A stretch of 64,000 nucleotides of DNA. Source: Eubacteriales bacterium (lineage in GTDB: Bacteria; Bacillota; Clostridia; Oscillospirales; CAG-272). Below are positions 4,664 to 60,450 of the stretch, one piece after another. The stretch is from the NCBI GenBank assembly GCA_045580085.1, contig JAZNND010000018.1, positions 1,783-65,782 of the forward strand, written 5' to 3'. A program made the position numbers and the translations under genes. The notes beneath the pieces are model-generated. The model did no database searches and was not told the DNA's origin. It saw nothing but the letters and a program-made list of their open reading frames with translations. How positions within the stretch are numbered: the first letter of the stretch is position 1; each line of letters opens with the position of its first letter.

Positions 4664-4677
4664 AGGAGATTACGCTA

Positions 4678-5967: not shown

Positions 5968-6098
5968 TTTAACTTTTATAACAAACCATAAAAAGTCACC
6001 ATACCGTCAACACCGTCTCTGCCACGTCAAACAGTTTTTTATTGAACCGGTCAAAGACGCGCCGAAAAAATTCTGACAACAGAAAGGATACGCCTTTT

Positions 6099-43772: not shown

Positions 43773-43816
43773 TGGCGTTAATTCCTTTCGTTTTAGGATG
43801 TTATGTAAACAATGGT

Positions 43817-44419
43817 TTACGAATTTTCATATTTTGAGATGTCATACGCCTTCGGATTGGCATCAATCACACGGTCAATCAAACCGTAGGCGCAGGCATC
43901 GGCGGCACTCATGCGGTTGTCGCGGTCGGTGTCGATGCGGATGGTTTCAATGGGTTTGTCGGTGTTGCGGGAGAGAATGGTGTTGAGCTGTTCTCTCGTG
44001 CGGCGAATGCTTTCGGCGTAATTGAGAATATCGCTTGCCTGCCCTTGGGTGCCGCCGAGGGGCTGATGGATGAGCACCTCGCTGTTGGGAAGTGCCTCAC
44101 GCTTGCCGCGCGTTCCGGAGGAAAGGAGAAACGCGCCCATGCTCGCCGCCATACCCATGCAGACGGTGCGGATATCCGCTTCCACCAAATTCATGGTGTC
44201 GTAGATGGCAAGCCCTGCCGAAACCGATCCGCCGGGGGAATTGATGAACATGGTGATCTCGCGCTGTTCTCTCGGAATACCGTCCTTTTTAAAGCGGTAA
44301 TCAAGGAATAAGAGCTGTTTGATGATGAGATTGGCTACCTCGTCATCGATGGGCCCGAGCAGGGTAATGATATTGTTTTCCACAAAAAAGCTTTCGGAAA
44401 GTTTTTCGGACGTTTTCAT
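43817..44419 (-). CDS. clpP: ClpP-family serine protease paralogue (S14)
   Basis: INSPGGSVSAGLAIYDTM, catalytic Ser in GMAASMGAFLL, His in LIHQPLGG and Asp region DTDRDNRMSA. The N-terminal axial-loop segment is not recognisable. Confidence 0.85.
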   Translation of the reverse strand: MKTSEKLSESFFVENNIITLLGPIDDEVANLIIKQLLFLDYRFKKDGIPREQREITMFINSPGGSVSAGLAIYDTMNLVEADIRTVCMGMAASMGAFLLSSGTRGKREALPNSEVLIHQPLGGTQGQASDILNYAESIRRTREQLNTILSRNTDKPIETIRIDTDRDNRMSAADACAYGLIDRVIDANPKAYDISKYENS

Positions 44420-44516: not shown

Positions 44517-44538
44517 ATTTTTCAAGTTTTCTTGAAAA
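44517..44538. promoter_or_regulatory. 22-nt element ATTTTTCAAGTTTTCTTGAAAA (palindrome TTTTCAAG-N4-CTTGAAAA), copy 1
   Basis: Identical over all 22 nt to 52835-52856. It lies just downstream of the Doc-like stop and about 75 nt upstream of the clpP -10. Confidence 0.8.
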
Positions 44539-44926: not shown

Positions 44927-47035
44927 TTAATTCAGTTTTTTAAGATAGCCGTCGGCGTTTTCGTAGACCGAGGCGGCGGTTGCGGCAAAAATATCGTTGC
45001 GAATGACCGTTTCGGCGCACAGCGCGTCTCCCGATAAAAGCTTTTCAAAATAGCGGATGAGCGCATCGCGGCTCTTATTTGTTTCCACATCCGCAAACCA
45101 ACCGAGGCGCGCACGCGGCAGCGGCGGCGCGTTGCCGCCTGCGGTATAAACAACCGAAACGCTGTCGCCTGCTTGTAGTTTATGCGAGAAGGGAACCTCC
45201 TTGCCGTTGACCGAGATGCGGTAGGTTGTGAGTGCCGCTTTGGAGCTGACAGCGAAGGAAAGATCGAGTGCCGTCGCACCGACGGGAAGGCTGTATACAT
45301 CCCCCGCATCGGTCGTCACACGGATCATTTTTCTTTCGTCAAGCAAAACGGAAGAATCCGAAAGCGACTCGCCGAAGCGCGCGTACATGTAGCTTTTTAA
45401 GGTGGTGACGAAAAGCTCCACGCGGTTTTCGTAGGCATCGGCAAACAGCAAGCGGTACTGACCGAGGGGGCTGTCATAGCGGATGTCCTCGATCAAAAAG
45501 GCGGGGGAAAGCTCCGCGGCGTAGGCATCCATAAACAGACGCATGAATTTGCCGATGTTCTCTTCGGGAGAGTCGGTTTTGGGTGTCAGAATAAGATAGA
45601 GCTTTTTTAACATCACCGTGCGCTTAGTGATGGGTGTTTCGTAGCTCTTGCGCTCACTTTCGGTAAATCCCATGCGCTCAAAATACGCCTCTTTGGCAAA
45701 GGAGGAACGCTCCTTGTAGGCATCGAGGATTTCGATGAGCTCTTTTACGGAATAGTCCGCCGTGCGGTAATCCACCGAAAAGCCGTGTCCGCGCAGAGCT
45801 CCCACCGCCGTCTTTAACGCGTCAAAAAACGAGGTAAATTCAATGCTGTTGCGGTGCACGAGCTTGCGGTAAGCATTGTGAATGGCGTGGTAACGGGTGG
45901 GTTCTTCGATTTTTAGAATCTCGCTTTCGATGGCGTAGGAAAGATCCTCTAATCGGAAGGATCGGAAAAGGGGCAGGTAGATTTCTTTGGTTTGGCTTAT
46001 CTTGGTATACTTGGCGGTGCGGTCGAGCGCGTCAAGCGTGCGCAGGTTAACCAATCGGTCCGCCGCCTTGATATAGAGCCCTGCGATCAGGCTCGGACGG
46101 GATTCGATGCTTTGCCTTAAAGCGTCGGCATAGATTTTTTCAAGCTCCCCCTCCGCGCCCGATGTGATGATTTCTCTGCCCGAAAGGGGCGAGATATCGC
46201 TTTTCATGGAGCTGATGTGGGTAACAGCTCCCACATAATCACGGATGTTTTCGGTAAAATCACGCCCAACGTCCGAAAGGGTGTAATCGGTTTGCTCAAT
46301 GGTGTCGTGCAAAAGTGCGGCGGCAAGGGTTTCGGCGTTAACCTTGTATCCGAGCAGTAAAAGCGCGACCGACAGCGGATGGAAAATATAAGGCTCGCCG
46401 GAGCGACGCTTGACGTCGCCGTGCAAAGCAAGCACTTTTTCATAAGCATGCTTGACGTGAACGGCGTTTTCACCGCCGAGTTCGGAGCGCACATGGCGCG
46501 TCAGATGTTCGAAAAGCCGTTCCGCCGCATGGCGAAAAATGCGGTTGTCGATGCGCTCACAGCATTCTTCGCAAGTGCTTGCGGATTTTTCGGCTCCAAA
46601 GAGCTCCGCCATGCCGCTTCCGTACGCTTCTTCGAGATCCTCTTTGCTCAGCGTATAGCGGAAGGTGCCCGCAGGAGCTTCGCACAAGGGCAAAAGCAGA
46701 GCCGCCGCGATCTCTTCAAAGGTGCCATAGGCGCGCGTGGCGATGAGAAATGCCATTTGTGCGCGGTAAACGGAATACGGTACGGGATGCGCCGCGAGGC
46801 TTGGCGCGTACATGCGCTCTTTGGGTACGGTTTTGTCGGTATAATATTCTTCGAGAGAGGCGAAAAGGGAAGCGAGTGCCTCACGCTTGCGCGCGATATC
46901 GGTGCTGACGTGAAAAATATCCTCTGCGTGCTCGGCATGCTCGGTCAAGCGCGTAAATTCGTTTTCGGTGAAGGCGGCGAGAATTCTTTCCTCATACTCC
47001 GCCCGATCTTCGGACAAAAAATAGGATTGTGGCAT
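44927..47035 (-). CDS. Rel/SpoT-homologue-like protein: intact-looking HD hydrolase domain, degenerate synthetase-like region, TGS domain, novel N-terminus
   Basis: RRSGEPYIFHPLSVALLL...AALLHDTIEQT...KAADRLVNLRTL (HD domain). TGS: IRVTTDAGDVYSLPVGATALDLSFAV...ISVNGKEVPFSHKLQAGDSVSVVYT. The synthetase EVQIRT motif reads ELFVTT. Confidence 0.7.
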   Translation of the reverse strand: MPQSYFLSEDRAEYEERILAAFTENEFTRLTEHAEHAEDIFHVSTDIARKREALASLFASLEEYYTDKTVPKERMYAPSLAAHPVPYSVYRAQMAFLIATRAYGTFEEIAAALLLPLCEAPAGTFRYTLSKEDLEEAYGSGMAELFGAEKSASTCEECCERIDNRIFRHAAERLFEHLTRHVRSELGGENAVHVKHAYEKVLALHGDVKRRSGEPYIFHPLSVALLLLGYKVNAETLAAALLHDTIEQTDYTLSDVGRDFTENIRDYVGAVTHISSMKSDISPLSGREIITSGAEGELEKIYADALRQSIESRPSLIAGLYIKAADRLVNLRTLDALDRTAKYTKISQTKEIYLPLFRSFRLEDLSYAIESEILKIEEPTRYHAIHNAYRKLVHRNSIEFTSFFDALKTAVGALRGHGFSVDYRTADYSVKELIEILDAYKERSSFAKEAYFERMGFTESERKSYETPITKRTVMLKKLYLILTPKTDSPEENIGKFMRLFMDAYAAELSPAFLIEDIRYDSPLGQYRLLFADAYENRVELFVTTLKSYMYARFGESLSDSSVLLDERKMIRVTTDAGDVYSLPVGATALDLSFAVSSKAALTTYRISVNGKEVPFSHKLQAGDSVSVVYTAGGNAPPLPRARLGWFADVETNKSRDALIRYFEKLLSGDALCAETVIRNDIFAATAASVYENADGYLKKLN

Positions 47036-47047
47036 TTTATCACCCCG

Positions 47048-48154
47048 TTAAACGTCGCTCCGGATGTGATTTCGGAGCATGTGATAAATGTTTTGGTATT
47101 CCTCATTGGTGGCGTCTAAGCGGAAATGGCTGAAGGCAACCTGCGAGAGGGCGTTTTTGTAAAGCTTCATGATACGGTGCACCAAAATGCCGTCGGTGTC
47201 CTCCTCCGCGAGTCCCGCACCGGTGAGCTTGTCACGCATATCGCGATAAGAAGCAACCGCATCGGAGAGCTCATTCTCTAAGTCTGGGATCACAAAATCC
47301 ACATCAAGATACCGCGCGATGCGCTCATCACTGCGTTCAAGAATACCCCTTGCCACAATGACCTCTTGCGCCGTCGGACAGCTTTTGGAGCCGCGCGAGA
47401 TGGATGCCATAAGCCCAAGGCCGCCGATGTAGACGGATTCGCGATTGCTCGGGCGCACCAAGTACAGCGTTACGTAATCGAGGCAGGGCTCGTTTTCCAA
47501 AGTGATGGCGAAATAATCATCCTTTAATAAATGCACCTCACCCACGTAGAGATTTTTGAGATTCTCTCCGAGGAAGGTGTCGTGGAAGAGCATGTCGGAG
47601 CTGCGGTACTGTTCTCTGAGATCCTGCAAAGCCTCAAAGGATTTGAGCTTGGAGTAAAAGGCGAGTGCTTTATCCTTTTCCTTAAAAGGGGCGGCGTATA
47701 CCGCAGGGCGCGAGGCGAGAATGCCGTCGGCGTCATACCGCGGCAAAACCGAAAGCACAATGTAGCGCAATCCGCGCGCCAAGGATGCCTCGGGAGAAGG
47801 ATCGGTGCGAGAGGTGTCGTAGGCGTACATAAAGTAATTGCCGAGGATGTTTTTGTGGTCCTCCGCTACTTCATAATACTGTTCCTTATCCACCGCCATG
47901 ACCGTAGAATAAAACTGATCGAGCGAAAAATTGCGCAAAGGATGGCTCGGATGCAAGCGTATAAGGCTCTCGCGGAGCGTCAGAATGCGGTCCACGGGCG
48001 GTACGGCACTGCCGCTTTCCCAAGAACGGAGCGTTTGGTGAGAGACGCCTGCCTCCTCGGCAAACACCGCGATGCTGACGGGGGGATCGATGGCTTCTCG
48101 AATGGTTTTTAGGTTTAAGCTGGTATAGGGAGCAATATCAAAAGTGCTTGCCAT
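47048..48154 (-). CDS. XRE-family HTH protein with about 290-aa uncharacterised C-terminal domain (first gene of minus operon)
   Basis: VSIAVFAEEAGVSHQTLRSWESGSAVPPVDRILTLRESL is a Cro/C1-type HTH. The rest is unassigned. Confidence 0.6.
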   Translation of the reverse strand: MASTFDIAPYTSLNLKTIREAIDPPVSIAVFAEEAGVSHQTLRSWESGSAVPPVDRILTLRESLIRLHPSHPLRNFSLDQFYSTVMAVDKEQYYEVAEDHKNILGNYFMYAYDTSRTDPSPEASLARGLRYIVLSVLPRYDADGILASRPAVYAAPFKEKDKALAFYSKLKSFEALQDLREQYRSSDMLFHDTFLGENLKNLYVGEVHLLKDDYFAITLENEPCLDYVTLYLVRPSNRESVYIGGLGLMASISRGSKSCPTAQEVIVARGILERSDERIARYLDVDFVIPDLENELSDAVASYRDMRDKLTGAGLAEEDTDGILVHRIMKLYKNALSQVAFSHFRLDATNEEYQNIYHMLRNHIRSDV

Positions 48155-48630: not shown

Positions 48631-49245
48631 ATGGAAGAGATCAAGGAAACCGCAGAGCCGCAAGAACAAGAGCTTTTGGTGCCTTCCGCGGGGATCCGTG
48701 TCACACGCATACGGCGGTATGAGCCGACCTACACCGAGGACGAAACCCTCTTGCCCGAAGGGGACGGCGATCACCAACTGCTGTTTACGCCGCATGCGGC
48801 GGAGCTTTTACGGGGCTTAACCGATTGGGGAACCGAAAGCGAGCGTAATGTGATCGAACAGCAAGGCATCATGCTCGGAAAAGTATACCGCACGCCGCGC
48901 GGCTTTACAGGTGTGGTGGAAGAGCTTGTGCTTTCTTCCGCTGTCGGAAACGCGGTTTACGTCGAGTCCTCTCACAGCGAGTGGAGCGAGATGGATCGCC
49001 GCATGGACGAGTTGAACGAACAAAGAGAAGAAAAACTCGTCAAGGTTGGTTGGTGGCACACCCATCCCAATATGTCGATCTTCATGTCGGGCACCGATCG
49101 CCGCACGCAAGCCGATTATTTTTATCAGCCTTGGCAGTTTGCCGCCGTTTTTAATCCCCAGGCCGAGCTTTGGGGAGCCTACATCGGAGAATGCGCCCAA
49201 GCCTGCACGGGCAAATGGATCACGGAAGGAACCGAAACAGAATGA
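48631..49245 (+). CDS. JAB/MPN (JAMM) metallopeptidase, deubiquitinase-like
   Basis: ATG 48631 lies 8-9 nt after AAAGGAG. JAMM motif GWWHTHPNMSIFMSGTD with an upstream Glu (VIEQQG). Confidence 0.85.
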   Translation: MEEIKETAEPQEQELLVPSAGIRVTRIRRYEPTYTEDETLLPEGDGDHQLLFTPHAAELLRGLTDWGTESERNVIEQQGIMLGKVYRTPRGFTGVVEELVLSSAVGNAVYVESSHSEWSEMDRRMDELNEQREEKLVKVGWWHTHPNMSIFMSGTDRRTQADYFYQPWQFAAVFNPQAELWGAYIGECAQACTGKWITEGTETE

Positions 49246-49760
49246 CAGAAACAAGAAAAAGACGTCTCGCGAACGACTACCGCGAGCTTTGCAGTATGAA
49301 AGGGCCGATCATGGATTTTCGCCCTCTGGTGGGTACACCGCCCTATGTCGAGCAGTATGAGCTGACCTTTCATATCCGCAGTATCATCGGTCCCGAACCC
49401 TCCTACCGCAGTGTGCATGTGGTGCGTTTGGCACTGCCTGCCGGCTATCCTCTGGACGGTTTTCCGCAGGTGACCATGGTCACGCGCCCCTTTGTGTACC
49501 ACCCCAACTGGTTCCGCAACGGCAACTGGTGCTTCGGCGGTGCTTCCAAGCACACCGAGGGCTTAGGCAATTTTGTGGTGCGTCTGATGCAGACTTTGCA
49601 ATACTGCGAGAGCATCATCAACGTCGGCAGTCCCGCCAACGGAGACGCCACCAGCTGGTATTTGCGCTATAAGCGCAGCGGCATTTTCCCTACCGACACC
49701 CAAAAGCTGCCCCAACCCAACATCGGCGGCATCATCATCAACAAAAGAAACGATCAATAA
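49242..49760 (+). CDS. E2 ubiquitin-conjugating-enzyme-like protein
   Basis: ATGA overlap with the JAB gene. N-terminal RLANDYRELCS. HPN motif followed by a Cys (FVYHPNWFRNGNWCFGG). Confidence 0.75.
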   Translation: MTETRKRRLANDYRELCSMKGPIMDFRPLVGTPPYVEQYELTFHIRSIIGPEPSYRSVHVVRLALPAGYPLDGFPQVTMVTRPFVYHPNWFRNGNWCFGGASKHTEGLGNFVVRLMQTLQYCESIINVGSPANGDATSWYLRYKRSGIFPTDTQKLPQPNIGGIIINKRNDQ

Positions 49761-49781
49761 TTTATTTTAAGGAGAACGATT

Positions 49782-50060
49782 ATGAACCTTCATCTTACTT
49801 TTATGCATCATTCCGACAACAGCTCCATCGACGTTACCATTGAGGACAACTGGAGTGCCAACTACGCCATCGAAGAACTCATCCGCGAAAACTTCCTCAA
49901 GCCCCTCGGCGATGCCGAAGAATACCGTCTCGTCTACAAAGAAGACCAAACCGAGTTTGGCGGCTCTACCACCTTTGCGCAAGCAGGTGTGCAAGACGGA
50001 AAGGTAATATCCGTCGTCGTCCGTCCTAAAGCGGGCTTCGGTGGGGCTATTTTGGCGTAA
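49782..50060 (+). CDS. Ubiquitin-like (beta-grasp) protein with internal di-Gly and 4-residue C-terminal tail (…GFGG-AILA)
   Basis: 92 aa. Position between E2 and E1. Ends ...VISVVVRPKAGFGGAILA. RBS AAGGAG 7 nt upstream. Confidence 0.65.
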   Translation: MNLHLTFMHHSDNSSIDVTIEDNWSANYAIEELIRENFLKPLGDAEEYRLVYKEDQTEFGGSTTFAQAGVQDGKVISVVVRPKAGFGGAILA

Positions 50061-50107
50061 AGAGCCGTTCGCTCCCCTCGCAGTAGATATCTACAGCTTC
50101 AGGTCGC

Positions 50108-50164
50108 GAACGACACTTTCCATCCAAAATCCCCCACACCGAAGGAACTTTTAAAAGAAACTTT
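50108..50164. repeat. 57-bp direct repeat, copy 1 (inverted partial copy of the Ubl gene 3' end)
   Basis: 56/57 identical to 50179-50235. Its 5' part (50106-50143) is about 77% complementary to 50037-50072. Confidence 0.9.
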
Positions 50165-50178
50165 GCCGAAGGGAAAAA

Positions 50179-50235
50179 GAACGACGCTTTCCATCCAAAA
50201 TCCCCCACACCGAAGGAACTTTTAAAAGAAACTTT
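50179..50235. repeat. 57-bp direct repeat, copy 2
   Basis: 56/57 identical to copy 1. Period 71 bp. Confidence 0.9.
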
Positions 50236-50277
50236 TAAAATGCAAAGTTAAAAACCGAGCAAAACAAAGGAGGCACT

Positions 50278-51579
50278 ATGCCTATCATCATTCATAAACG
50301 GACAGATGCGGACGGCAAGACCGTGGAGGCATCGGAAATCAAAGCACCCATAGACGAAAAGAACGATCCTTTTGCCAGACAAAAGCTGGTTTCTTGGTGG
50401 GATCAGGATAAGATCTCCAAGGCGCGCGTGCTGGTGATGGGGGCGGGTGCCATCGGCAACGAGACCTTAAAAAATTTGGCGTTGCTCGGCTTCAAGCATC
50501 TTTTTATCTGCGATATGGATACCATAGAGCTCTCCAATCTCAGCCGCACGCTCCTTTTTCGCCCGTCGGATGAGGGCAAGGAAAAAGCCGCGGTAGCGGC
50601 GGAGCGTGTGCGTGAGATGTGCCTTGCACCCGACGCGCGCGTGGATTATTTTACGGCGGACGTGATGTTCGGGCTCGGCATCGGCATTTTCCGTTATTTT
50701 GATCTGATTCTCGGTTGCCTTGACAACGATGCCACGCGTTTTTACATCGACCGTTGCGCTACGGTGTTCGGCAAACCTTGGATCAATGCGGGTATATCCA
50801 ATCTGCAAGTGGGATTGCAAGCCTTTTTTTGCGATCAAAACGACGTTTGCTTTCATTGCGGTATGGATGAAGATGTCATCACGCGCGTGATGAGCCGCAA
50901 GGCGTCTTGCGGTAAGACCGTGATCAGCGATCTTTCCGGCGGCAAGGTGCCGACGGTGCAGGTGGCAAGTGCCATCGTTTCGGGCATGCAGACGCAAGAA
51001 GCGGTCAAGTATCTTTCGGGCAAGCAGGTCGCCTTCGGTCAGAATTATTATTTTGAGGGCGTGGGCAATTCCTTCACTGTCTCACGCAACCGCCCCGACA
51101 GCAACTGCCGCCACCATTTGTTCCCGCGCATTCGCGAGGTGAAGGAGCTATATGATATCACAAACGCTTCCACTCTGCGTGAGCTTTTGGAAGCGGCATC
51201 CAAGGCAATCGGGCGCGAGGTAACACTCGATCTTTCGGAAGAATCGGGGCGCGATTTTATCACCCACGCCGATTGCATTTACTGCGGCGCGTCGGTTCCC
51301 ATCGGTTTGCCCCGTTTCCGCTTCCGCGAGGAAATGGCGGTATGCCAAGCATGCCGCACGTCTGCCCCCGATGTTTTCCCGAGCGAGCCTTGGGTTTATC
51401 CCGTATCGGAATACAGTCTTCAAAGCGACGAGTCGCTTTTATCCATGCCCTTATCCTCTCTCGGTATTCCGCCGCTGCATGTGATGCGTGTTTTTGACAG
51501 TGAAGAGAATGTTTATTATATCGAGACTTCGGGTGATTTACCCCTCATTTGCCCCGAAAATTACGGAAAATGCAAATAA
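50278..51579 (+). CDS. E1-like ThiF/MoeB-family activating enzyme
   Basis: VLVMGAGAIGNETLKNLALLG, ICDMDTIELSNLSRT, and CxxC pairs (CFHC, CIYC...CQAC). RBS AAGGAGG. Confidence 0.85.
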   Translation: MPIIIHKRTDADGKTVEASEIKAPIDEKNDPFARQKLVSWWDQDKISKARVLVMGAGAIGNETLKNLALLGFKHLFICDMDTIELSNLSRTLLFRPSDEGKEKAAVAAERVREMCLAPDARVDYFTADVMFGLGIGIFRYFDLILGCLDNDATRFYIDRCATVFGKPWINAGISNLQVGLQAFFCDQNDVCFHCGMDEDVITRVMSRKASCGKTVISDLSGGKVPTVQVASAIVSGMQTQEAVKYLSGKQVAFGQNYYFEGVGNSFTVSRNRPDSNCRHHLFPRIREVKELYDITNASTLRELLEAASKAIGREVTLDLSEESGRDFITHADCIYCGASVPIGLPRFRFREEMAVCQACRTSAPDVFPSEPWVYPVSEYSLQSDESLLSMPLSSLGIPPLHVMRVFDSEENVYYIETSGDLPLICPENYGKCK

Positions 51580-51624
51580 TACTTTGCATTATTCCTGCTT
51601 TTATAGAAAGGAAAAGTCATAAAC

Positions 51625-52143
51625 ATGGCTGATACCGAATTTGAACTTGACGAATCCAAGCGATGGTTTGTGGAGCTTGGTCGCATCGATCCCATGACGC
51701 GTGAGGCGTTTGCGATGGGAGACCGTGTGATTATATGCCGTTCTTGCAAGATTGTTCACAAGGACTATACCTGGAAGGACAACGGCGGCTGTTGCTCGCC
51801 CGGATGCAACTGCAAGACGAGCGCCAAGCGATTTTTGGCACCGCCCTCTTCCGCCACGCCTGCCTCGCCGACACCTGCGCCGCGCATGGTGGTGCGCGGC
51901 AACCGAACGCCGCCCGAGAATCACGGCCGCATTCAGATTCGTGCGCGGACGGGTGCGGACGGCATTCGCATTGAATCGGCACCGCCTCCCGTGCCGTCGC
52001 CCATTGCGCCGCGCCGTTCGCGCAGCCGAACAGTGACACCGCCTGCGGATGCGGGGCAAAACCGCCGTATCGTGCTCGGCAACGCCGCGCCGCCCGAGCA
52101 TCGCACACCCATCATCATTCGTTCGAGGCATGACGATGACTGA
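51625..52143 (+). CDS. Hypothetical protein: N-terminal Cys-rich Zn-ribbon-like module plus Pro/Arg-rich tail with an internal repeat
   Basis: CRSC-x14-CCSPGCNC. Repeats RMVVRGNRTPPENHGRIQIR and RRIVLGNAAPPEHRTPIIIR. This frame links the flanking genes; other ORFs here are by-products of high GC. Confidence 0.5.
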   Translation: MADTEFELDESKRWFVELGRIDPMTREAFAMGDRVIICRSCKIVHKDYTWKDNGGCCSPGCNCKTSAKRFLAPPSSATPASPTPAPRMVVRGNRTPPENHGRIQIRARTGADGIRIESAPPPVPSPIAPRRSRSRTVTPPADAGQNRRIVLGNAAPPEHRTPIIIRSRHDDD

Positions 52144-52825
52144 CCTTTCGGTGTATTATAAAAACGCGCTGGCACCCTCCGAGCGTCGGACCTACGATGC
52201 TCTTAAGGAGGGGCTTTTGGCGCATAAAAAGGAGATCGTTTGCCCTTTTTCTCCGCAATTCACCCGTGCCGTGCGCGCCATCAACTACGACTGCCCCGAG
52301 CTCTTTTATATCAACTGGGTGGAATCCTACCGCTGTGCGAGTGAAGGGGATCGCTTGATTTTTTCCTTTCCCTATCTTTATGAAAAAGAGCAAACCGCCG
52401 CTTTGCGGGCGGAGCTTTGCGCTTACGCGCGCGAGGTAGCGGGCATCAGCGTATACGGTAAGGTGCGCACCTTGCATGACAAACTGACTTCAAGCCTTTT
52501 ATATGACAGCGAAGGGCTTGCCGCCGCGATCCGTTCGCCCGCGATGTTCAGTGCCTTGGGGCCTTTGCGCCACCGCCGCGCGGTGTGCGAGGGAATCAGC
52601 AAATTTGCTTGCTTTGTGCTCAGGCGCATGGGGGTTTCTGCCGCCGTAGCCGTAGGTTCGCACGAGGGCGTAGGGCATGCATGGAATTTTTATCGCCATG
52701 AAAACGGCAGAGTAGCGTATACCGACATCACCTTTGACATTGCCTTCAAAAATACGCCTGCCGCCTATCGCTATTTTGATCTTGACCGAGCGCAAATGGC
52801 GTACGATCATCGGTTTGATTGTTAG
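52130..52825 (+). CDS. Transglutaminase-like (papain-fold) cysteine peptidase/transamidase
   Basis: Putative Cys-His-Asp triad in CEGISKFACFVLRRMGVSAAVAVG...GHAWNFY...YTDITFD. The ATG (52130 or 52136) overlaps the upstream ORF. Confidence 0.65.
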   Translation: MTMTDLSVYYKNALAPSERRTYDALKEGLLAHKKEIVCPFSPQFTRAVRAINYDCPELFYINWVESYRCASEGDRLIFSFPYLYEKEQTAALRAELCAYAREVAGISVYGKVRTLHDKLTSSLLYDSEGLAAAIRSPAMFSALGPLRHRRAVCEGISKFACFVLRRMGVSAAVAVGSHEGVGHAWNFYRHENGRVAYTDITFDIAFKNTPAAYRYFDLDRAQMAYDHRFDC

Positions 52826-52834
52826 CGAATTCAC

Positions 52835-52856
52835 ATTTTTCAAGTTTTCTTGAAAA
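52835..52856. promoter_or_regulatory. 22-nt element ATTTTTCAAGTTTTCTTGAAAA, copy 2
   Basis: Identical to 44517-44538. It lies 12 nt after the transglutaminase-like stop, about 76 nt upstream of a TACAAT (52920-52925) and about 100 nt upstream of the helicase ATG. Confidence 0.8.
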
Positions 52857-52953
52857 AATAATTTTGTAAATTTCGGAAAGTTTACCGTTTCCCCTCTTAA
52901 AAAAACGAGGAGAATGCGATACAATAGAGACAGAAAAGGAAAGGGGTGCCAAG

Positions 52954-55900
52954 ATGACCGTTCGAGATTATATTCTTTCACAAGTGAAGAAAACCAGAGA
53001 CACCATGCGAAGCGACAGCTTCAGCGATCTTTGCGGCTTGACGGTCGCTTTGCGCGGCAAGACGGTTTCTTCGGTTCTTTCCATCCTCTCCTCCTCTCTC
53101 AAAGCGGCGGTGGAGCTGGTGGATCCCGCACTGGTGACCTCGGGTGCCGCCGATTATGGGGCGGGAGAGATCGTCAGTGCCGCACACGCTTTCTGTGCGG
53201 ACGATCCCGTGGTATGGGTGGACGGCAAGATCTTTTTTGCCACGGAGGACGGCAGCTATTGCACCCCCGATGAATATCATTATCTGAAGGAAAACACCTT
53301 GGTGGAGCGCGCCGTGTTCGGCGCGTCGCGCCATCCGATCTACGGTCTTGCCGCCACCTTCAAACGTTTGATCCGCGCGGCTTCCGAAGCGCAGGCGGAT
53401 AAAGCCAAGGAGATTTTATACCTGACCGTCGGCTCGGCGCAGTGGACGGACAAGAAGAAAAGCACCAAGACGCGTATCCACAAGAGCCTCGCGCCGCTGT
53501 TTACCATGCATATCGAGCCTGCCGGAAAAGGCACGCTTGCCTTCCGCGCGACCGCGGCGGGGGTGTTTTTCCGCATCAATACCGTTTTTCGCCGCGATCT
53601 TATTGGGCAATACGAGGCGGATATTTACGAAGGGATTCCCGATGAACCCCTTTCTCCCGAGGCACTTCTCTCGGCATTGGAGCAGGTTTGCCGCCGCGCC
53701 GAGGAACTGCTCGGCGACCGTATACGCATGGATAAGGACGCGCTTTTCTTGACCTTGCTCGATTCTCAATACGAGGCGATCTGTCAAAAGATCGAGGCGA
53801 ATATCGACGCGCTCGCCGCCTCTCCCTTGGCTTGCCTTTTAGCGGGAGAAAAAAGCGGATTTCGGGCGCAAGAGCCGCAGGACGGGCTTAGTGTGATCTA
53901 CCCCTTGACGGCGGATGAAAGCCAAAGAGCCGTAATCGGTGCCTCCCTTTCGGGCAAAAGCGTGTTTGCCTCGGCTCCTGCCGGTACGGGTAAATCCCAA
54001 ACTGCTGTCAACATTGCCGCCAACACCGTTTTGCGCGGCGGAAATGTTTTCGTGCTCAGCGAAAAGCTTGCCGCGAACGATGTCTTTTTGCATTACAGCG
54101 AACGCATCGGGCTCTCGCCTTTTTGCCTGAGTGTTGACAATAAAATGAGCATCGACAGCCTCATCCGCGCCGTAGAGCGCGTGGCGGCACTTCCGTCCCG
54201 CTATGTCAAGAGCGATACGGCAAAGCTTGCCGTGGATGCCTATCACCGTTCTTGCGCCGCGTATGAACGCTTGAATGCCAAACTCTACTTTCCCATAGAA
54301 GAGCTCGGCGGCGTTTCTCTTTACGACTTGATCGCGCTCTCCTCCTCTTCGCCCGCGCTCTCCCACACCGAAGGGCTTTTCGCCGGCAAAGAGCAATACG
54401 AAAGCGCGCTTTCTCTCCTTTCGGAGCTTGAAGAGGGGCTTCTCTCCCAAATGACCGACGCGGAATTTGATGCCTACTTCTCTACGGGCGAAAGCGGCGA
54501 CGGCGAGCTGGATATGCTTTTAGGGCATTTATGCCAAAGAATGCTTGAAAAAGGGATAAATTGCAAAGAACTTTTTGCAAATAATCGACTTTCCCGTCAG
54601 AATGCCGTGCCCTCCGTTCGCGCGGAAATGGCAAGGGCGCAGGCTCTTTCCTACACCGAGATGTGGGGGCTTTCGGACACGGGCGAGAGATGTGTGCGCA
54701 AGATCTTCCGCGAGCTTTTGGAAAACGCCCTCAAAATGGAACAGCTGTATGCCGATCTTTTGACGCAAACGCTTTCTTTGCGTGCAAAACAGGCACCGAC
54801 GGCGAAACTGCTTTCTTTGCTCTCGGATGCCAAGAAAGCCAAAATTCCCGTGGGTGAATTTTTCAAACAAAACGCCGAAGCATTACGAGAGGTCTTTCCC
54901 GTGATCGTTTCCACCCCCATGCCCGCCGTCAACTATTTACACGGTACGGGGCTTGACCGCTTTACGGTCATGACGGTGGACGAGGCATCCCAAATGCCCA
55001 TCGTTGCCGTTTTGCCCTTCCTTGACCGTGTGGAGCGTTTGGTGGTGTTCGGCGACGAAAAACAGCTTGCCATCATCAACACCTTTGCCAAGGCGGAGAA
55101 AACCGTCTCCACCGATTACGACGAACGCGTTGCTGCCGCCAAAAACTCGGTGCTTGACGCGGTGCGCGGCAAGGAGAGCGAAGAGGGCTTCTTTGCGGGG
55201 GCACTTCGCTACCACTACCGTTCCAAAACCGAAATGCTGGTGCATGTTTCGAATGAAAGATGCTATAACGGCTCTTTGCAAGTCGTTCCCGACGTGGCGA
55301 CCTCAAGGCGTTATCTTGCGCCTTACATGGGGCTTTCTCTCATCGAGGTTGCCGACCGCGCCCATCCGCCCGTTTTGCTCCGCGACGGAGAGAACGTGAC
55401 CGAGGCGCAAGCCATCGTGCGCGACGTCGGAGAGATGAAACGGCAATATCCCGAACGCTCCGTGGGTATTATCACCCTCAATGAAAAACAGCAAAACCTG
55501 ATTTTGGACCGATTGGAGGAGGCGCATCTTGAGCCTTCCGCGGATCTTTGGGTGCGCTCGCTCGACAACGCGCAAGGAAAGGAAGCGGATTTCGTTTTTA
55601 TCAGCATCGCTCATGCCGAGCGCAAGGATAACGGGGAGCTTCGCCTTGCCGTTTCGACCTTCAACCGTGAGGGCGGAGAGAACCGACTCAACGTGCTTTT
55701 CACCCGTGCCGCTTACCGCGCCGCGGTTTACATTTCTTTTGATCACAAGGAGCTTTTGAAGAGCGACAACCCGCGCATCCGTCTGCTTTACGAGTATTTG
55801 CACTATGCGAAAGAAGGGGAACTCAACGAGCGTCCTTCTTTAAGCCTGCCGTCGGCGGACGAGGCGTTGGTTTCGGCGGTTTCGGGCATGGTTTCTTCGC

Positions 55901-56613
55901 TCCTTCCCACCTTGGAGGGCTCCGCGCGCATCGGAAGCGAGAGCGTTTCGGTCGACATTGCCGTGAAGGAAAAGGACGCGGAGCGTTATGCTTTGGGGCT
56001 TCTCATGCCTTCGGGCGGACAGTCAGCCGCCGCCGCCGTCACCAAGATGATGACGTTAGAGCGCGCGGGGTGGAGCCTTTTACCTCTTTCTCCCACCTAT
56101 TTTCTGGCGCGTCATGCGCAGTTTGCGACACAGCTCAAAAAGAGCTTGCAAGCCGAAAAGACGGAAAAAAAGGAAAGCGAGGTTTCCTTTTTGACCTGCC
56201 GCGCACCCAAAGAGCTTTTTGTGCCCGCTATGTTGGAGGACTTCCTCTTTTCCGATAAACCCATCGATGACGCCGCCGTCTTGAAGCTTCCGCTTAAGGA
56301 GATTTACACCCGCGTGTTGCGGGAGAATTTGATCTCGATGGAGGAACATGAGCTTGCCGCTTTGGTGCGCCGCGGCGACAAGGAGGCACTTCTCGCCTCT
56401 TTCGTGCGTTACGTGCCTTATTACATTAAGCAAGGCAGCTTGCAAAAGATAGTCAGCGGTGTCAACAGCCTTTACGTGGCAAGCAAGGAATACCGCGCAG
56501 GGCTTCTTTTGGCGGTGCTTTTGCGCAACGGTCCTAACGCCGAGGAACCCATCACCAAGCGCATCATACAAGACCTGATTGCCGAAGCCAAGGACCTTGG
56601 GCTCGGCTATTAA
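52954..56613 (+). CDS. Large SF1B (Upf1/DNA2-like, AAA_11/AAA_12) helicase, 1219 aa
   Basis: Walker A SAPAGTGKSQT, Walker B VMTVDEASQM, FGDEKQL, SLDNAQGKEADFVFIS and motif VI RLNVLFTRAAYR. About 330-aa N-terminal and about 300-aa C-terminal regions are unassigned. Confidence 0.8.
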   Translation: MTVRDYILSQVKKTRDTMRSDSFSDLCGLTVALRGKTVSSVLSILSSSLKAAVELVDPALVTSGAADYGAGEIVSAAHAFCADDPVVWVDGKIFFATEDGSYCTPDEYHYLKENTLVERAVFGASRHPIYGLAATFKRLIRAASEAQADKAKEILYLTVGSAQWTDKKKSTKTRIHKSLAPLFTMHIEPAGKGTLAFRATAAGVFFRINTVFRRDLIGQYEADIYEGIPDEPLSPEALLSALEQVCRRAEELLGDRIRMDKDALFLTLLDSQYEAICQKIEANIDALAASPLACLLAGEKSGFRAQEPQDGLSVIYPLTADESQRAVIGASLSGKSVFASAPAGTGKSQTAVNIAANTVLRGGNVFVLSEKLAANDVFLHYSERIGLSPFCLSVDNKMSIDSLIRAVERVAALPSRYVKSDTAKLAVDAYHRSCAAYERLNAKLYFPIEELGGVSLYDLIALSSSSPALSHTEGLFAGKEQYESALSLLSELEEGLLSQMTDAEFDAYFSTGESGDGELDMLLGHLCQRMLEKGINCKELFANNRLSRQNAVPSVRAEMARAQALSYTEMWGLSDTGERCVRKIFRELLENALKMEQLYADLLTQTLSLRAKQAPTAKLLSLLSDAKKAKIPVGEFFKQNAEALREVFPVIVSTPMPAVNYLHGTGLDRFTVMTVDEASQMPIVAVLPFLDRVERLVVFGDEKQLAIINTFAKAEKTVSTDYDERVAAAKNSVLDAVRGKESEEGFFAGALRYHYRSKTEMLVHVSNERCYNGSLQVVPDVATSRRYLAPYMGLSLIEVADRAHPPVLLRDGENVTEAQAIVRDVGEMKRQYPERSVGIITLNEKQQNLILDRLEEAHLEPSADLWVRSLDNAQGKEADFVFISIAHAERKDNGELRLAVSTFNREGGENRLNVLFTRAAYRAAVYISFDHKELLKSDNPRIRLLYEYLHYAKEGELNERPSLSLPSADEALVSAVSGMVSSLLPTLEGSARIGSESVSVDIAVKEKDAERYALGLLMPSGGQSAAAAVTKMMTLERAGWSLLPLSPTYFLARHAQFATQLKKSLQAEKTEKKESEVSFLTCRAPKELFVPAMLEDFLFSDKPIDDAAVLKLPLKEIYTRVLRENLISMEEHELAALVRRGDKEALLASFVRYVPYYIKQGSLQKIVSGVNSLYVASKEYRAGLLLAVLLRNGPNAEEPITKRIIQDLIAEAKDLGLGY

Positions 56614-56628: not shown

Positions 56629-57960
56629 ATGTTATCGTTACATGAATCCGATGCTGCGCGCGCCGAACGCAATTATATTTTGCCCGAGGGCACGCGTGTG
56701 GCGGGAACGGGCGGCTCCTTTTATACCGTGCGCTCTCTTTTGAGCAACGACACGGGGCAAGCCAATGTCTACACCGTTGAAAAGGACGGAGAGACTTATG
56801 TTTTGAAGCTTTTCTTCCGCAAGGGGGAGGAGGAGAATCGCGCGATTCTCTCCCAAATTGCCATATTGATGCGCCGCGGCGAGGCGAGCGATGCTTTTGT
56901 TACGCCTTTGGAGACTGTGGAGCATGAGGGAAGAGTCGGATATGTGATGGAATACGTCGGAGAAGAGTACATCGATGGCATCTTCTTGATCAACGGCATC
57001 GGCGGCGATATTCAAAATCAAGTGCCCTTTGCCGTTAAGCTGACGGTTTTGTACGGACTTTCCGAGGCGGTGAGTGCTTTGTTTAACGCCGGGCTTGCCT
57101 TGATGGATCTCAAACCCGAAAATGTGAAATTCAATCCCTATACGGGTGCTGTGAAGATTCTCGACACCGACACCATCGTTGCCAGCGGTTCTAGGGGCTT
57201 TGTGTTTGGCACGCCGGGGTATATGCCTCCCGCCGTGATGCGCGGCGAGGAGGAGCCTGACCGATATGCCGATTGCTATGCTTTGGCGGTGATTATCTTT
57301 TTGACGCTTTTCCGTTTTCATCCCTTGGAGGGCAAGGCGGACGAAAAAGAGCTTGACTCGGACCGCTATGAATATTTGTACGCCACGCATCCCGTGTATG
57401 TTTTTCATCCGAGCGATTTTTCCAACCGACCGACCGACGCGTGCGCCATGTATGAAAGGCGGTATTTGCGCTATCCCACCTTTTTTACCGACGGTTTTTT
57501 ACGTACCTTTGTGTATGGGCTTTCGGAGAGAAAGGAGGAACGCACCACCCCCGAGGAATGGTGCGGACTGATCGAAAGGCTTTACGAAGCCTCCTTTCTG
57601 TGCACGGTGTGCGCAGAGGAGCAGTTTATCGAGAGAGAGGATACGGTTTTTTGCGAGGTGTGCGGAGAGCCTTTGGTCAAGCCTCTTCTTTTGGAAGGGG
57701 ATAAGGCGGTGCCTTTATATCTCGAAAGTGAGATCAAGGAGAGCGATCTTTGCTTTGCCCCTTTGACCGACCGCACGCTTTTCCGCGTGGTTAAGACCGA
57801 GTACAGCGGAAAGTTCGGGCTTATGACACTGCATTCGGCCTTGCGCCTCTTATTCGATGACGGCAAAATCGTTTCCTTTGAAAAAGGAACGGTGGCACCC
57901 TTGTTTTTGGGGGTGCGCTACCTCTTTGAGGATAAAGAATTGATATTGCGACAGATATAG
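56629..57960 (+). CDS. Ser/Thr protein kinase (non-RD) with C-terminal Zn-ribbon and beta-rich domain
   Basis: ATG 56629 lies 6 nt after AAAGGAG. GTGGSFYTV loop, YVLKLF Lys, catalytic loop MDLKPENV, ILDTDT, GTPGYMPP. CTVC-x14-CEVC ribbon. Confidence 0.8.
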   Translation: MLSLHESDAARAERNYILPEGTRVAGTGGSFYTVRSLLSNDTGQANVYTVEKDGETYVLKLFFRKGEEENRAILSQIAILMRRGEASDAFVTPLETVEHEGRVGYVMEYVGEEYIDGIFLINGIGGDIQNQVPFAVKLTVLYGLSEAVSALFNAGLALMDLKPENVKFNPYTGAVKILDTDTIVASGSRGFVFGTPGYMPPAVMRGEEEPDRYADCYALAVIIFLTLFRFHPLEGKADEKELDSDRYEYLYATHPVYVFHPSDFSNRPTDACAMYERRYLRYPTFFTDGFLRTFVYGLSERKEERTTPEEWCGLIERLYEASFLCTVCAEEQFIEREDTVFCEVCGEPLVKPLLLEGDKAVPLYLESEIKESDLCFAPLTDRTLFRVVKTEYSGKFGLMTLHSALRLLFDDGKIVSFEKGTVAPLFLGVRYLFEDKELILRQI

Positions 57961-57978
57961 AAAGTGAGGAAATGAATC

Positions 57979-59007
57979 ATGAAAACCTTTGTGACACGCG
58001 GCTCAACCGTTACCCGTCCGAGAGAAAACGTCAGACGGGAAAGTGAGGTCAGAAAACCGCTTTATTTTGCCTTCATCGTTGACACCTCGGGCAGCATGGG
58101 AGACCGTGTGCAGGTGGCAAGCGAGAAAGCGGGCAGTTATGAAACCACCAAAATCGCCGAGCTCAACGAAGGCTTGACGAAAGCAATTGAGAGCTTGCGC
58201 GAATTTGAGACCAAAAACAGCCAGTTCAAGGTGTATTTTGAGGTCATCGAGCTCAATTCCTACGGCAAAGCGCTTTTTCCCGAGGGCTTCATTCCCCTTG
58301 CCGACCGCGATGTGAGCGTGGAGCTTACCGCAAAAGGTGCGACCTGCCTTGAAAACTCGCTCAATACCTTGATGAAATATCTGACGCCAAACTACATGCC
58401 GGGGTGCAACCGCGCGGTCAACGTGATTTTGATGTCCGACGGTCAGCCCACCGATGTGGACGGCTATTTCCTCACACCCGAGCAATACACCGACACCCTC
58501 AAAAAGTTCAAGAATTACCTCGCACAAAAGAACCTCAAACGCAATGTGGATCTTTATTCCATCGGTGTCAGCGGTGCATGCGAGGAAATGTTGACGCTTT
58601 TCGCGGACGAGGGAAAATATTATAAGGTAGAAAAAAGCGACTCTTTGGCGAGCTGGATCGATCATGTGACGCGTGTCAGCTTCAAGCGTTCCTCCGCGCC
58701 CGAAGGACTCTTCCGTCCGTACGGCGGCGCGGCATCGGCAACGCCGAGTGCGGTTCGTTCCATCCCCTCGGCACCTGCTCCGCAGCCTGCCGCACCTTCC
58801 GCTTCCGGCATTAAAAAGACGGTGGATCTTACCCGTTGCGCCAAGGGAGAATGCCTTGCTTGCATGGATGCCTGCCCGAAACACGCCATTTGCTACGCCA
58901 ACGGCTTGGTGGCGGTGGATGAATCGCTTTGCGACGGATGCGATGTCTGTCTTTCCTCTTGCGCACAAGGCGCGATTGTGGATATCGCGGCGCTTCCGTT
59001 CGGTTGA
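57979..59007 (+). CDS. von Willebrand factor A (vWA) domain protein fused to a 2x[4Fe-4S] ferredoxin-type domain
   Basis: MIDAS motif FIVDTSGSMGD and ILMSDGQPTD. C-terminus CAKGECLACMDACP...CDGCDVCLSSC. A Pro/Ala-rich linker lies between the two domains. Confidence 0.8.
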   Translation: MKTFVTRGSTVTRPRENVRRESEVRKPLYFAFIVDTSGSMGDRVQVASEKAGSYETTKIAELNEGLTKAIESLREFETKNSQFKVYFEVIELNSYGKALFPEGFIPLADRDVSVELTAKGATCLENSLNTLMKYLTPNYMPGCNRAVNVILMSDGQPTDVDGYFLTPEQYTDTLKKFKNYLAQKNLKRNVDLYSIGVSGACEEMLTLFADEGKYYKVEKSDSLASWIDHVTRVSFKRSSAPEGLFRPYGGAASATPSAVRSIPSAPAPQPAAPSASGIKKTVDLTRCAKGECLACMDACPKHAICYANGLVAVDESLCDGCDVCLSSCAQGAIVDIAALPFG

Positions 59008-59042
59008 TTTGGGGCTTTTGCACAGAAAGGAATCTTAGATTT

Positions 59043-59969
59043 ATGGAACATATCACCGTAAACGCTTTGAAGGTCACGGGCTTTCGTAAAAAAGAGACGG
59101 GAGGCGGATGCGAGGATGCCTTGAAGGTTCTTCCGTTTTCGAAAGGGCAGATTCTTGCCGCCGCCGACGGGCATGGAGACTTGCGCTGTAAATACGCGTC
59201 TGTCGGGGCGGCGTTGGCGTGCGAAAGTGCTGTGAGGGTGCTTGCTTCCTATGCCGCACGGCTGGGGCGTCGCTCCCCGTCGGAATTTTGGAATGAGAAC
59301 CGAAATGCCATCGCGAAAGAGATTATGCTTTCCTTCCGCCATGCCGTTTTGGATGATTTTACCGCGCGATACCCCGATTACGCTTCCGAAAAAGAACGCT
59401 TGCACGGGCTCATCGATGCCTCTTTTGAGAGGGAAAAGGTGGTTCTCGGCGCGGAAAACGCCGAAAGGGAAGCCAAGCGCGCCGATAGAGACCGTTTATC
59501 CAAAATCGTTTTTCTCTACGGCACCACGCTCAGAGCTTCGGTTTTGAGCGAAGGCTATGTTTTTAATCTCGCCGTCGGAGACGGCGATACCGTGGCACTC
59601 CTTGCAAACGGCGAAGCGGTTTGGCTGATTCCCAAGGGCGAAGCCTTTGATACCCGTACGGAATCCATGTGCGAAGAGCCGCGTACGCTCCTTGAATGTT
59701 TTTATTTTTCCTTTTTGCCTTTAAAGAGCCGCAAGAAAACGGAGGACTCTTTTGACTTATGCACCCTCGTGCTTTGCACCGATGGGTTGCGCAATTCCTT
59801 TTTCTCGGATACGGGCTATACCGATTTCCTCTTTTCGGCATCGAAAAGGCTTAAGGAACGGGGCAAGAGCTACACGCGCACCTTGAGACGGCGTTTGGAG
59901 ACTCTGACGCGTAACAGCTGTTATGGGGACGACATCACTCTTTTGATGGCTTATAAGGAAGAAATGTAA
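59043..59969 (+). CDS. PP2C-family Ser/Thr phosphatase
   Basis: ATG 59043 (the listed ORF starts at 58929). AADGHGD, LVLCTDGL and YGDDITLLM motifs. Confidence 0.75.
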   Translation: MEHITVNALKVTGFRKKETGGGCEDALKVLPFSKGQILAAADGHGDLRCKYASVGAALACESAVRVLASYAARLGRRSPSEFWNENRNAIAKEIMLSFRHAVLDDFTARYPDYASEKERLHGLIDASFEREKVVLGAENAEREAKRADRDRLSKIVFLYGTTLRASVLSEGYVFNLAVGDGDTVALLANGEAVWLIPKGEAFDTRTESMCEEPRTLLECFYFSFLPLKSRKKTEDSFDLCTLVLCTDGLRNSFFSDTGYTDFLFSASKRLKERGKSYTRTLRRRLETLTRNSCYGDDITLLMAYKEEM

Positions 59970-60001
59970 ACAAATATGTGCAAAACGCGTGAAAATGACT
60001 C

Positions 60002-60030
60002 TTGCACTTTTGATTTTCCTGTGGTACAAT
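60002..60030 (+). promoter_or_regulatory. Promoter TTGCAC-17-TACAAT (extended -10 TGG) at the right border of the island
   Basis: TTGCAC 60002-60007. TACAAT 60025-60030, preceded by TGTGG. Confidence 0.55.
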
Positions 60031-60060
60031 AGAGATATCAAACCGAAAGGAATTTTCAAA

Positions 60061-60450
60061 ATGTCAAGAAGCCGTTTTTCACGCGTTTTTGCTTTTTTGC
60101 TTGGCGCGGTGTTGCTTTTTTCGCTTTTTTCCTGCGCGCCCGATTATACGGCAGATGCAAGGATTGGTACTTATACCGACGAAAGCGGAGCTTATACCCT
60201 CGTTTTCCGTGCCGACGGAACGGGAATGGCGAGCCATAGCTCGGTGAACGGATTCGAGAATCAAGAAGAATTTGTGTTTGAGATCAACGGAGACGCGCTT
60301 GAGGTGCTCGGTAAGAGCGAGGGCGGCGGCGTTTTGGGCAGAAATGAGTACAGAGCGACCTTTGCCGAAGAAAACGGCGTTTTCACCTTCACCCTCAAAA
60401 ATGCCGACAGCGGCAATCTTTTCGGCGTTTTTTATCAAAAGGGAAACTGA
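60061..60450 (+). CDS. Small lipoprotein
   Basis: MSRSRFSRVFAFLLGAVLLFSLFSCAPD has lipobox LFSC. Confidence 0.6.
   Translation: MSRSRFSRVFAFLLGAVLLFSLFSCAPDYTADARIGTYTDESGAYTLVFRADGTGMASHSSVNGFENQEEFVFEINGDALEVLGKSEGGGVLGRNEYRATFAEENGVFTFTLKNADSGNLFGVFYQKGN

Follow-up and report, generated by a model that had tools for sequence, protein, structure and literature searches.

The TerY-P triad combines a von Willebrand factor A (vWA) protein and a PP2C phosphatase with a serine/threonine kinase (STK) that carries a zinc ribbon; its prediction is credited by later papers to Anantharaman 2012 (PMC11090510, PMC4978471). It has been linked to systems for the restriction and processing of DNA and proposed to be a metal-sensing phospho-switch (PMC11090510), and linkage to helicases and nucleases is also described (PMC4978471). 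Most CoCoNuT systems of types II and III-A carry TerY-P beside an Upf1-like helicase, and TerY-P-like modules whose kinase bears an OB fold are cited from Gao et al. 2020 as stand-alone anti-phage systems (PMC11090510). Elsewhere, a kinase with zinc ribbon plus beta-rich domain, a PP2C and a stand-alone vWA protein adjoin GAP1-N2 GTPases, and the name 'ternary systems' designates the vWA-MoxR-VMAP/iSTAND/FtsH associations, one type of which recruits a full ubiquitin-like (Ubl) tri-ligase cassette (PMC7159879). The present work concerns a kinase-vWA-PP2C triad at positions 56629–59969 of a 64,000-nucleotide stretch of contig JAZNND010000018.1 from a Eubacteriales bacterium (assembly GCA_045580085.1), hereafter called the window, together with the helicase gene that precedes it. 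I know of no TerY-P triad for which a substrate or a mechanism has been established.

In the window, the kinase, the vWA protein and the PP2C are encoded by three consecutive open reading frames (ORFs) on the + strand, each with a Shine-Dalgarno-like sequence, and the gaps along the series helicase, kinase, vWA and PP2C are 15, 18 and 35 nt. Twenty-three loci were examined, 20 of them non-redundant (less than 97% kinase identity). The order helicase-kinase-vWA-PP2C is kept in all 20, with a helicase of about 1,210–1,260 aa, a helicase-to-kinase gap of 1–32 nt, and the PP2C gene adjacent in every locus whose contig extends far enough. Synteny across 20 non-redundant loci puts the association of the three genes far beyond chance. 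Moreover, since all 20 loci show the same order and the three further loci found by searching with the helicase each contain the triad again, the conserved unit is a four-gene cassette, helicase plus triad. An earlier note, made from the letters of this DNA, had described three consecutive, closely spaced genes and had made its reading depend on their linkage in other genomes; the description is confirmed, and every one of the 20 loci keeps the triad.

The family is rare. The kinase has 22 relatives among 5.8 billion clustered proteins; it occurs in 6 of 185,579 species genomes, all from uncultured gut-type Clostridia or Bacilli, in 7 metagenome contigs, and in 4 of the 37 genomes of its own genus. 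This sporadic distribution, the similarity of the helicase to anti-phage models and the variability of the accessory modules around the cassette all point the same way. I favour, at somewhat better than even confidence, the reading that the TerY-P triad and its upstream helicase make up a conserved, horizontally scattered four-gene cassette that would most likely act as a conflict module, directed against phages or other mobile elements.

The kinase (56629–57960, + strand, 443 aa) is of the Hanks Ser/Thr type and matches Pfam Pkinase at E=2.5e-14. Its AlphaFold2 (AF2) model has a mean pLDDT (predicted local distance difference test score) of 85 and a pTM (predicted template modelling score) of 0.85, and the top PDB matches found with Foldseek are CaMKII and other eukaryote-type kinases; this whole-protein search matched the catalytic domain only, not the beta-rich tail. 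The kinase is non-RD, with MDLKPEN at residues 159–165 and DTD, a DxD in place of DFG, at residues 179–181. Across an alignment of 14 family members K60 (the VAIK-type lysine), D160, K162, N165, D179 and D181 are invariant, as are C325, C328, C342 and C345, which form a CxxC-x13-CxxC zinc ribbon C-terminal to the kinase domain; alignment and AF2 model place an all-beta region after it. The earlier note had listed for the kinase its non-RD type, MDLKPEN, DTD, the zinc ribbon and the beta-rich domain, and it was right on each of them. The D-x-D motif is a hallmark of the wider kinase family, whose relatives show CDNDN, and Pfam detects no PASTA, transmembrane (TM) or FHA domain in the protein.

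A profile of the window tail retrieved 537 cluster representatives that share the zinc-ribbon/beta module. Most of them are kinases of about 425–445 aa in which the module occupies the same position, and it is also present in the kinases of other vWA/PP2C triads. Since the C-terminal module is common to these 537 representatives, it places the window kinase, on sequence grounds, in a broad triad-kinase family. Among ten module-bearing representatives that were sampled, two carry PP2C_2: P0230 is a PP2C_2-kinase fusion, and P0167 joins PP2C_2 to the zinc-ribbon/beta module with no kinase-domain match. Both serve as 'Rosetta-stone' proteins that link this class of kinase to the phosphatase. In locus L098 (11419–12717) the kinase falls into two ORFs, a kinase ORF of 347 aa and another of 81 aa; this may reflect a frameshift or a naturally separate zinc-ribbon/beta piece.

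The vWA protein (57979–59007, + strand, 342 aa) falls under the Pfam VWA cut-off (21.0 vs 23.8 bits). Its fold is nevertheless that of a vWA protein, possibly a TerY-like one: the core is modelled at a pLDDT of about 90, and Foldseek matches it to vWA domains, including the vWA subunit p44/Ssl1 of TFIIH, with E-values as low as 3e-10. The metal ion-dependent adhesion site (MIDAS) is intact, as had been noted from the sequence, D35-x-S37-x-S39, T122 and D154 being invariant across the family alignment. Beyond a Pro/Ala linker, the C-terminus holds eight cysteines, Cx4CxxCxxxCP ... CxxCxxCxxxC (Pfam Fer4_6, E=1.9e-6), a predicted 2x[4Fe-4S]-type ferredoxin pattern. About half of the family has this Fe-S module; the others have an acidic tail in its place. 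The extreme C-terminus also varies: the hydrophobic motif at window positions 58990–59004 reads LPFG or FPFG in the window clade, the endings are LLTF, ILRF or ILNF in L004, L007 and L010, three loci with an adjoining ClpP gene, and they are of the LFDGLDE type in other loci (a set including L005, L006, L011 and L013). The hydrophobic ending could be a docking motif.

The third gene of the triad encodes, as the earlier note had it, a PP2C phosphatase (59043–59969, + strand, 308 aa from its ATG; Pfam PP2C_2, E=2.6e-20). D25, DGHGD (residues 42–46), GDGD, TDG and DD, the Asp-rich metal-binding motifs, are invariant in the family alignment. Translation is assigned to the ATG at 59043, which has a Shine-Dalgarno sequence; with the alternative start, a TTG further upstream (58929), the gene would run into that of the vWA protein.

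The fourth member of the cassette is a DUF4011-containing superfamily 1B (SF1B; Upf1/DNA2-like) helicase of 1219 aa (52954–56613, + strand; Pfam AAA_11, AAA_12 and DUF4011). Its SF1 motifs are all invariant (Walker A GTGKS, DEASQ, YHYRS, QGxEAD and the arginine finger), DUF4011 is detected in 12 of 14 members, and the protein has a C-terminal helical extension. Its best profile matches are anti-phage models, namely PADLOC PDC-S37 (2.8e-89) and Hhe (1.9e-47) and NCBIfam ProA (8.5e-82). These matches cover residues ~585–1077 only (about 490 residues), and the NCBIfam scores lie far under the curated cut-offs (ProA, 275 vs 1500 bits; Hhe, 220 vs 2000 bits), so that membership in Hhe or ProA was rejected. 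A region resembling REase_MTES_1575 spans residues ~994–1046 (VDIAV ... TK..LERAGW). Since PF18741 matches faintly in 2 of 14 helicases only and the second motif has lost its acidic residue in the window clade, this restriction endonuclease (REase)-like region looks degenerate and the helicase nuclease is probably inactive. A search with the helicase gave about 24 full-length family members at E<1e-165; the next matches appear only at E~4e-45 and are generic DUF4011+MTES_1575(+DUF3320) helicases of 1,300–2,000 aa. The cassette helicases thus form a small, distinct clade, derived from anti-phage helicases of the Hhe/ProA type.

How does the cassette compare with the described systems? By its domains the window triad has the TerY-P architecture, which is of a known kind: a vWA protein with a MIDAS, an adjacent PP2C, an STK with a C-terminal zinc ribbon and an association with a helicase, and even the beta-rich domain beyond the zinc ribbon has its counterpart in the kinases described in PMC7159879. 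The earlier note had called the module 'ternary'; that it is a computationally predicted conflict or signalling module stands, but the name that applies is TerY-P, ternary systems being those built on vWA and MoxR (PMC7159879). Several features set the window apart from TerY-P. The order is STK-vWA-PP2C and Ter genes are lacking; the vWA proteins of the cassette bear a ferredoxin-type Fe-S module or an acidic tail, and that of the window has weak similarity to PADLOC TerY; and the triad is tied, obligatorily, to a single helicase clade. The TerY-P-like systems of Gao et al. 2020 share with the window the kinase/phosphatase/vWA trio and are reported to be anti-phage, but, according to the paper that cites them, their kinase is fused to an OB fold and the system works without a helicase, whereas the window kinase has a zinc ribbon plus a beta-rich domain.

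Among helicase-associated systems, CoCoNuT types II and III-A resemble the window in encoding TerY-P with an Upf1-like SF1 helicase (CnuH) within a predicted conflict system (PMC11090510). Their helicase differs from that of the window, which is of the DUF4011/Hhe type, and assignment to CoCoNuT was rejected since Pfam finds no McrB-like GTPase (CnuB), McrC (CnuC), HEPN nuclease (CnuE) or coiled-coil proteins among the island ORFs. Hhe, ProA and PDC-S37 share the DUF4011 N-terminal region, the SF1B motor and the MTES_1575-like region; by contrast, the window helicase has 1219 aa instead of 1550–1900 aa, its REase is degenerate, and a triad always follows it. The FtsH-ternary systems (Kaur et al. 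2020, PMC7159879) are similar in that JAB, E1, E2, RING and Ubl genes occur in a vWA conflict system beside an ATP-dependent protease. Their core, however, is a MoxR AAA+ protein plus FtsH with effectors tagged by EAD domains, with neither kinase and PP2C nor helicase, and membership of the vWA-MoxR ternary class was rejected since Pfam finds no MoxR or VMAP in the island.

Two candidate relatives and one tandem arrangement deserve mention here. L101 was considered as a triad without helicase and rejected: it repeats L102 at 99.4% identity, and its helicase is interrupted, either by unrelated DNA (with genes for a DUF6017 protein and a sigma-70 region 4-domain protein) or by an assembly break; a triad without the helicase was never found in this family. 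L091 and L092, from the same genus as the window, were rejected as cassette members: they are other triad-type kinases on short contigs, and one of them adjoins an FtsK-gamma protein. Directly upstream of its helicase-triad cassette, L002 carries a second, divergent triad (1868–6321; kinase 29% identical, vWA and PP2C) with an AAA ATPase ahead of it, so that two triads stand in tandem.

In the window the cassette is the last part of an island with housekeeping genes on both sides. A Ubl cassette (48631–52143, + strand) begins with a JAB gene (48631–49245, Pfam JAB), continues with an E2-like ORF and a 92-aa Ubl on the same strand, then with E1 (50278–51579, Pfam ThiF), and ends with a 172-aa Cys-rich protein gene, also on the + strand. 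A gene for a transglutaminase-like, papain-fold enzyme follows (52049–52825, + strand, likely start 52130 or 52136; Pfam Transglut_core, 8.6e-6). Between this block and the helicase-triad block lies a 128-nt spacer. It holds an operator-like palindrome (52836–52857, core TTTCAAGTTTTCTTGAAA) and, just 5' of the helicase start, a promoter-like TTAAAA-17-TACAAT (52897–52925, + strand), a weak call from a consensus scan alone with 9 of 12 matches. The palindrome TTTCAAGTTTTCTTGAAA has two matches in the 64 kb against 0.02 expected by chance; the second, identical copy (44520–44537) stands ahead of a block on the - strand (40433–44419, Pfam) that encodes a ClpP paralogue, a 534-aa protein without assigned function and a TraG/VirD4-like ATPase. 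L001 has a similar palindrome, TTCAAG-N4-CTTGAA, at 6197–6212, ~100 nt upstream of its helicase gene. The spacer with a palindrome common to the ClpP block, the -10-like element and the similar palindrome of L001 argue for a helicase-triad unit that would be separately controlled, yet co-regulated with the ClpP block. The single operon proposed in the earlier note is not shown, because the 128-nt spacer brings its own operator-like palindrome and -10-like element.

Further to the left, genes for an RSH-like (RelA/SpoT homologue) HD_4+TGS protein and an HTH_3 helix-turn-helix (HTH) regulator (44927–48154, - strand, Pfam) diverge from the + strand genes. On the right, a TTGCAC...TACAAT promoter-like element with a Shine-Dalgarno sequence (59999–60064) precedes a lipoprotein gene, which probably starts at the ATG at 60062 rather than at the GTG at 59989. 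This element marks the right end of the island, and the flanking lipoprotein, NUDIX and LuxS genes are also found in L001 and L008.

The neighbours of the cassette change from locus to locus. A transglutaminase-like enzyme with a conserved Cys-His-Asp triad is encoded in 12 of 20 loci, ahead of the helicase or after the PP2C. In L004, L007, L010 and L098, genes for ClpP, a ~535-aa unknown protein and a TraG/VirD4-like ATPase adjoin the cassette on its own strand; L096 has ClpP and the TraG-like ATPase there too, though arranged differently, and in the window the block lies on the strand opposite to the cassette (-). An FtsK-gamma protein often follows this block. No relaxase or type IV secretion system genes are present in it; the block may belong to the island as its protease arm, or it may form an unnamed system of its own. 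In five more loci TraG-like genes have other partners, one of which is an FtsH-like protease in L006. Seven loci of the sister clade that is without Ubl genes (L006, 5679–6185; L007, 489–941; L010, 5792–6325; L098, 7364–7753; L013; L104; L105) encode, immediately upstream of the helicase, a small conserved protein with three predicted TM helices, a possible membrane effector; equating these small proteins with the Cys-rich protein of the window was rejected on account of the three TM helices. The pair formed by the RSH-like HD/TGS protein and the HTH regulator is upstream of the cassette in L098 too, and L097 has an HD_4 protein. In L102 (15639–18092) and L103, downstream of the PP2C and after an 861-aa unknown protein, an 817-aa protein joins a DUF5700 zinc-peptidase-like region to a C-terminal Colicin E5 tRNase domain. 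A core that stays constant while its accessories change is what one expects of conflict systems, by the criterion of PMC7159879.

The cassette could work as follows. The nuclease-degenerate, Hhe/ProA-like SF1B helicase would engage foreign or aberrant nucleic acid, as the sensor and/or as the motor under control. Held in place by its zinc ribbon and beta-rich tail, the kinase would phosphorylate the helicase and/or the vWA adaptor and so turn the complex on, and the PP2C would reset this phospho-switch. With its MIDAS the vWA protein would clamp a partner, either an acidic peptide or a phospho-peptide. Where an acidic tail stands in place of the Fe-S module, that tail could serve as an intramolecular MIDAS ligand; in the half or so of the family that has it, the Fe-S module may add an input from redox state or iron. 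As the cassette contains no obvious toxic effector, its output would probably pass through the exchangeable neighbour modules: the transglutaminase-like enzyme, the ClpP/TraG-like ATPase block, the 3-TM protein and, in the window clade, the Ubl-conjugation cassette.

Several observations weigh against a conflict role for the cassette, or at least temper it. All loci come from metagenome-assembled genomes or metagenomes of similar habitats, which is a narrow sampling. No family member was found in a scan of viral contigs, so that a phage-borne origin is unsupported, and directly flanking the island in the window there is no integrase and no known defence gene. PADLOC TerY matches the vWA protein weakly (E=0.0045) and along 64 profile positions only, the PP2C is without a match among the PADLOC models, and at E<=10 no TerY-P kinase or phosphatase match was obtained for the window triad; close membership in the catalogued TerY-P systems is not claimed for that last reason. 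Kinase activity is not assured, since no alpha-C glutamate is conserved and an invariant Q76 stands in its stead throughout the cassette family; the glycine loop is also degenerate in the window protein.

Among the other explanations, the one that survives best makes the whole stretch from JAB to PP2C an integrated ten-gene operon, in which the triad would phosphorylate E1, E2, Ubl or JAB besides or instead of the helicase and Ubl conjugation would be the output. The Ubl genes do recur. JAB, E2, Ubl, E1, Cys-rich and transglutaminase-like genes lie directly upstream of the helicase on the same strand in 5 of the 20 loci (the window, L001, L008, where the Ubl region is cut by the contig end, L102 and L103), with helicase identity down to 39% and kinase identity down to 44% among them, and a precedent exists in the FtsH-ternary type, where a complete Ubl tri-ligase is combined with a vWA conflict system (PMC7159879). 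Between L102/L103 and the window, E1 (~61%) and E2 (~60%) are more alike than helicase (39%), kinase (44%) and PP2C (~37%), which means either that the cassette evolves faster or that Ubl genes are exchanged between islands. However, 15 of 20 cassettes have no Ubl genes within 6–10 kb, and in the window the spacer with its own palindrome and -10-like element separates the two blocks. In the helicase tree all five Ubl-linked loci fall in one 8-member clade (support 100/100); the Ubl cassette is missing in three members of this clade (L002, L096 and L097) and in all twelve loci of the sister clade, and its presence on the tree needs two gain/loss events. Moreover, Pfam detects no phospho-acceptor or FHA-type reader in the Ubl proteins. 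I therefore hold the integrated operon to be doubtful.

Because the five loci belong to one clade of eight and the twelve sister loci are without Ubl genes, the Ubl linkage is real and persistent but clade-specific. The co-occurrence of triad and E1/E2 genes, which the earlier note proposed to survey, is thus seen again in L001, L008, L102 and L103 and missing from 15 of 20 cassettes. Where that note had the triad 'appended' to a Ubl/helicase operon, the direction has to be reversed, the helicase-triad pairing being found in 20 of 20 loci and the Ubl genes in five: the Ubl cassette of the window is an accessory arm of the helicase-TerY-P core. Gating of the Ubl branch by phosphorylation is possible, and gating of the helicase by the triad is the better-supported proposal of the two.

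A more elaborate scheme would make of the ~20-kb island one layered immune pathway, a bacterial cascade that runs from a kinase by way of a ubiquitin-like tag to a protease and is assembled from exchangeable modules. The nuclease-dead helicase would sense the nucleic acid of an invader and the TerY-P switch, with an Fe-S redox input at the vWA adaptor, would make a phospho-signal; this signal would license both Ubl conjugation (JAB, E2, Ubl, E1, the Cys-rich protein and possibly the transglutaminase-like enzyme) and degradation, the latter carried out by the ClpP/TraG-like ATPase block, which is taken to be co-regulated. I regard this scheme as improbable.

It is quite improbable, too, that the cassette is a stress-response or repair module, with the Fe-S/vWA protein as a sensor of stress from redox change, iron or metal and with a switch that adjusts the helicase in its processing of damaged DNA or RNA. 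The MIDAS and the 8-Cys ferredoxin module found in about half of the family, the degenerate nuclease region of the helicase, the alarmone link suggested by the neighbouring RSH-like HD/TGS protein, and the metal-sensing, DNA-processing hypothesis put forward for Ter-linked TerY-P (PMC11090510, PMC4978471) would all suit such a role. On the other hand, the distribution is very sporadic and island-like, accessory swapping, which extends to the Colicin-E5 RNase-domain protein, is typical of conflict systems, and in many members an acidic tail replaces the Fe-S module.

Finally, pairs of kinase and PP2C genes are common in Firmicutes, but an ordinary housekeeping Hanks kinase/PP2C pair serving PknB/PstP-like growth signalling beside unrelated genes is effectively refuted by distribution and synteny, the family being absent from 33 of the 37 genus genomes and strictly syntenic with helicase and vWA in 20 of 20 loci, and its kinase, free of PASTA, TM and FHA domains, having a zinc-ribbon/beta tail common to other triad kinases.

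A four-gene conflict cassette thus remains the preferred reading. Neither the helicase-triad cassette nor its Ubl-linked form was found in the literature consulted, in which Anantharaman 2012 and Burroughs 2011 are represented by the papers that cite them, and a full-text search for operons combining Ubl, JAB, vWA, kinase and PP2C genes gave PMC7159879 alone. What is new here is that helicase and triad form an obligate cassette, that the vWA adaptor bears an Fe-S module and that a Ubl arm is specific to one clade. The one helicase to which the triad always lies translationally close is a concrete candidate for a substrate, within a compact four-gene system. The swapping of accessory arms (Ubl, ClpP/TraG-like, membrane protein, transglutaminase-like and RNase-domain) amounts to a natural experiment on how sensors are wired to outputs, and from the Ubl-linked clade one could learn whether bacteria had already coupled ubiquitin-like conjugation to phosphorylation.

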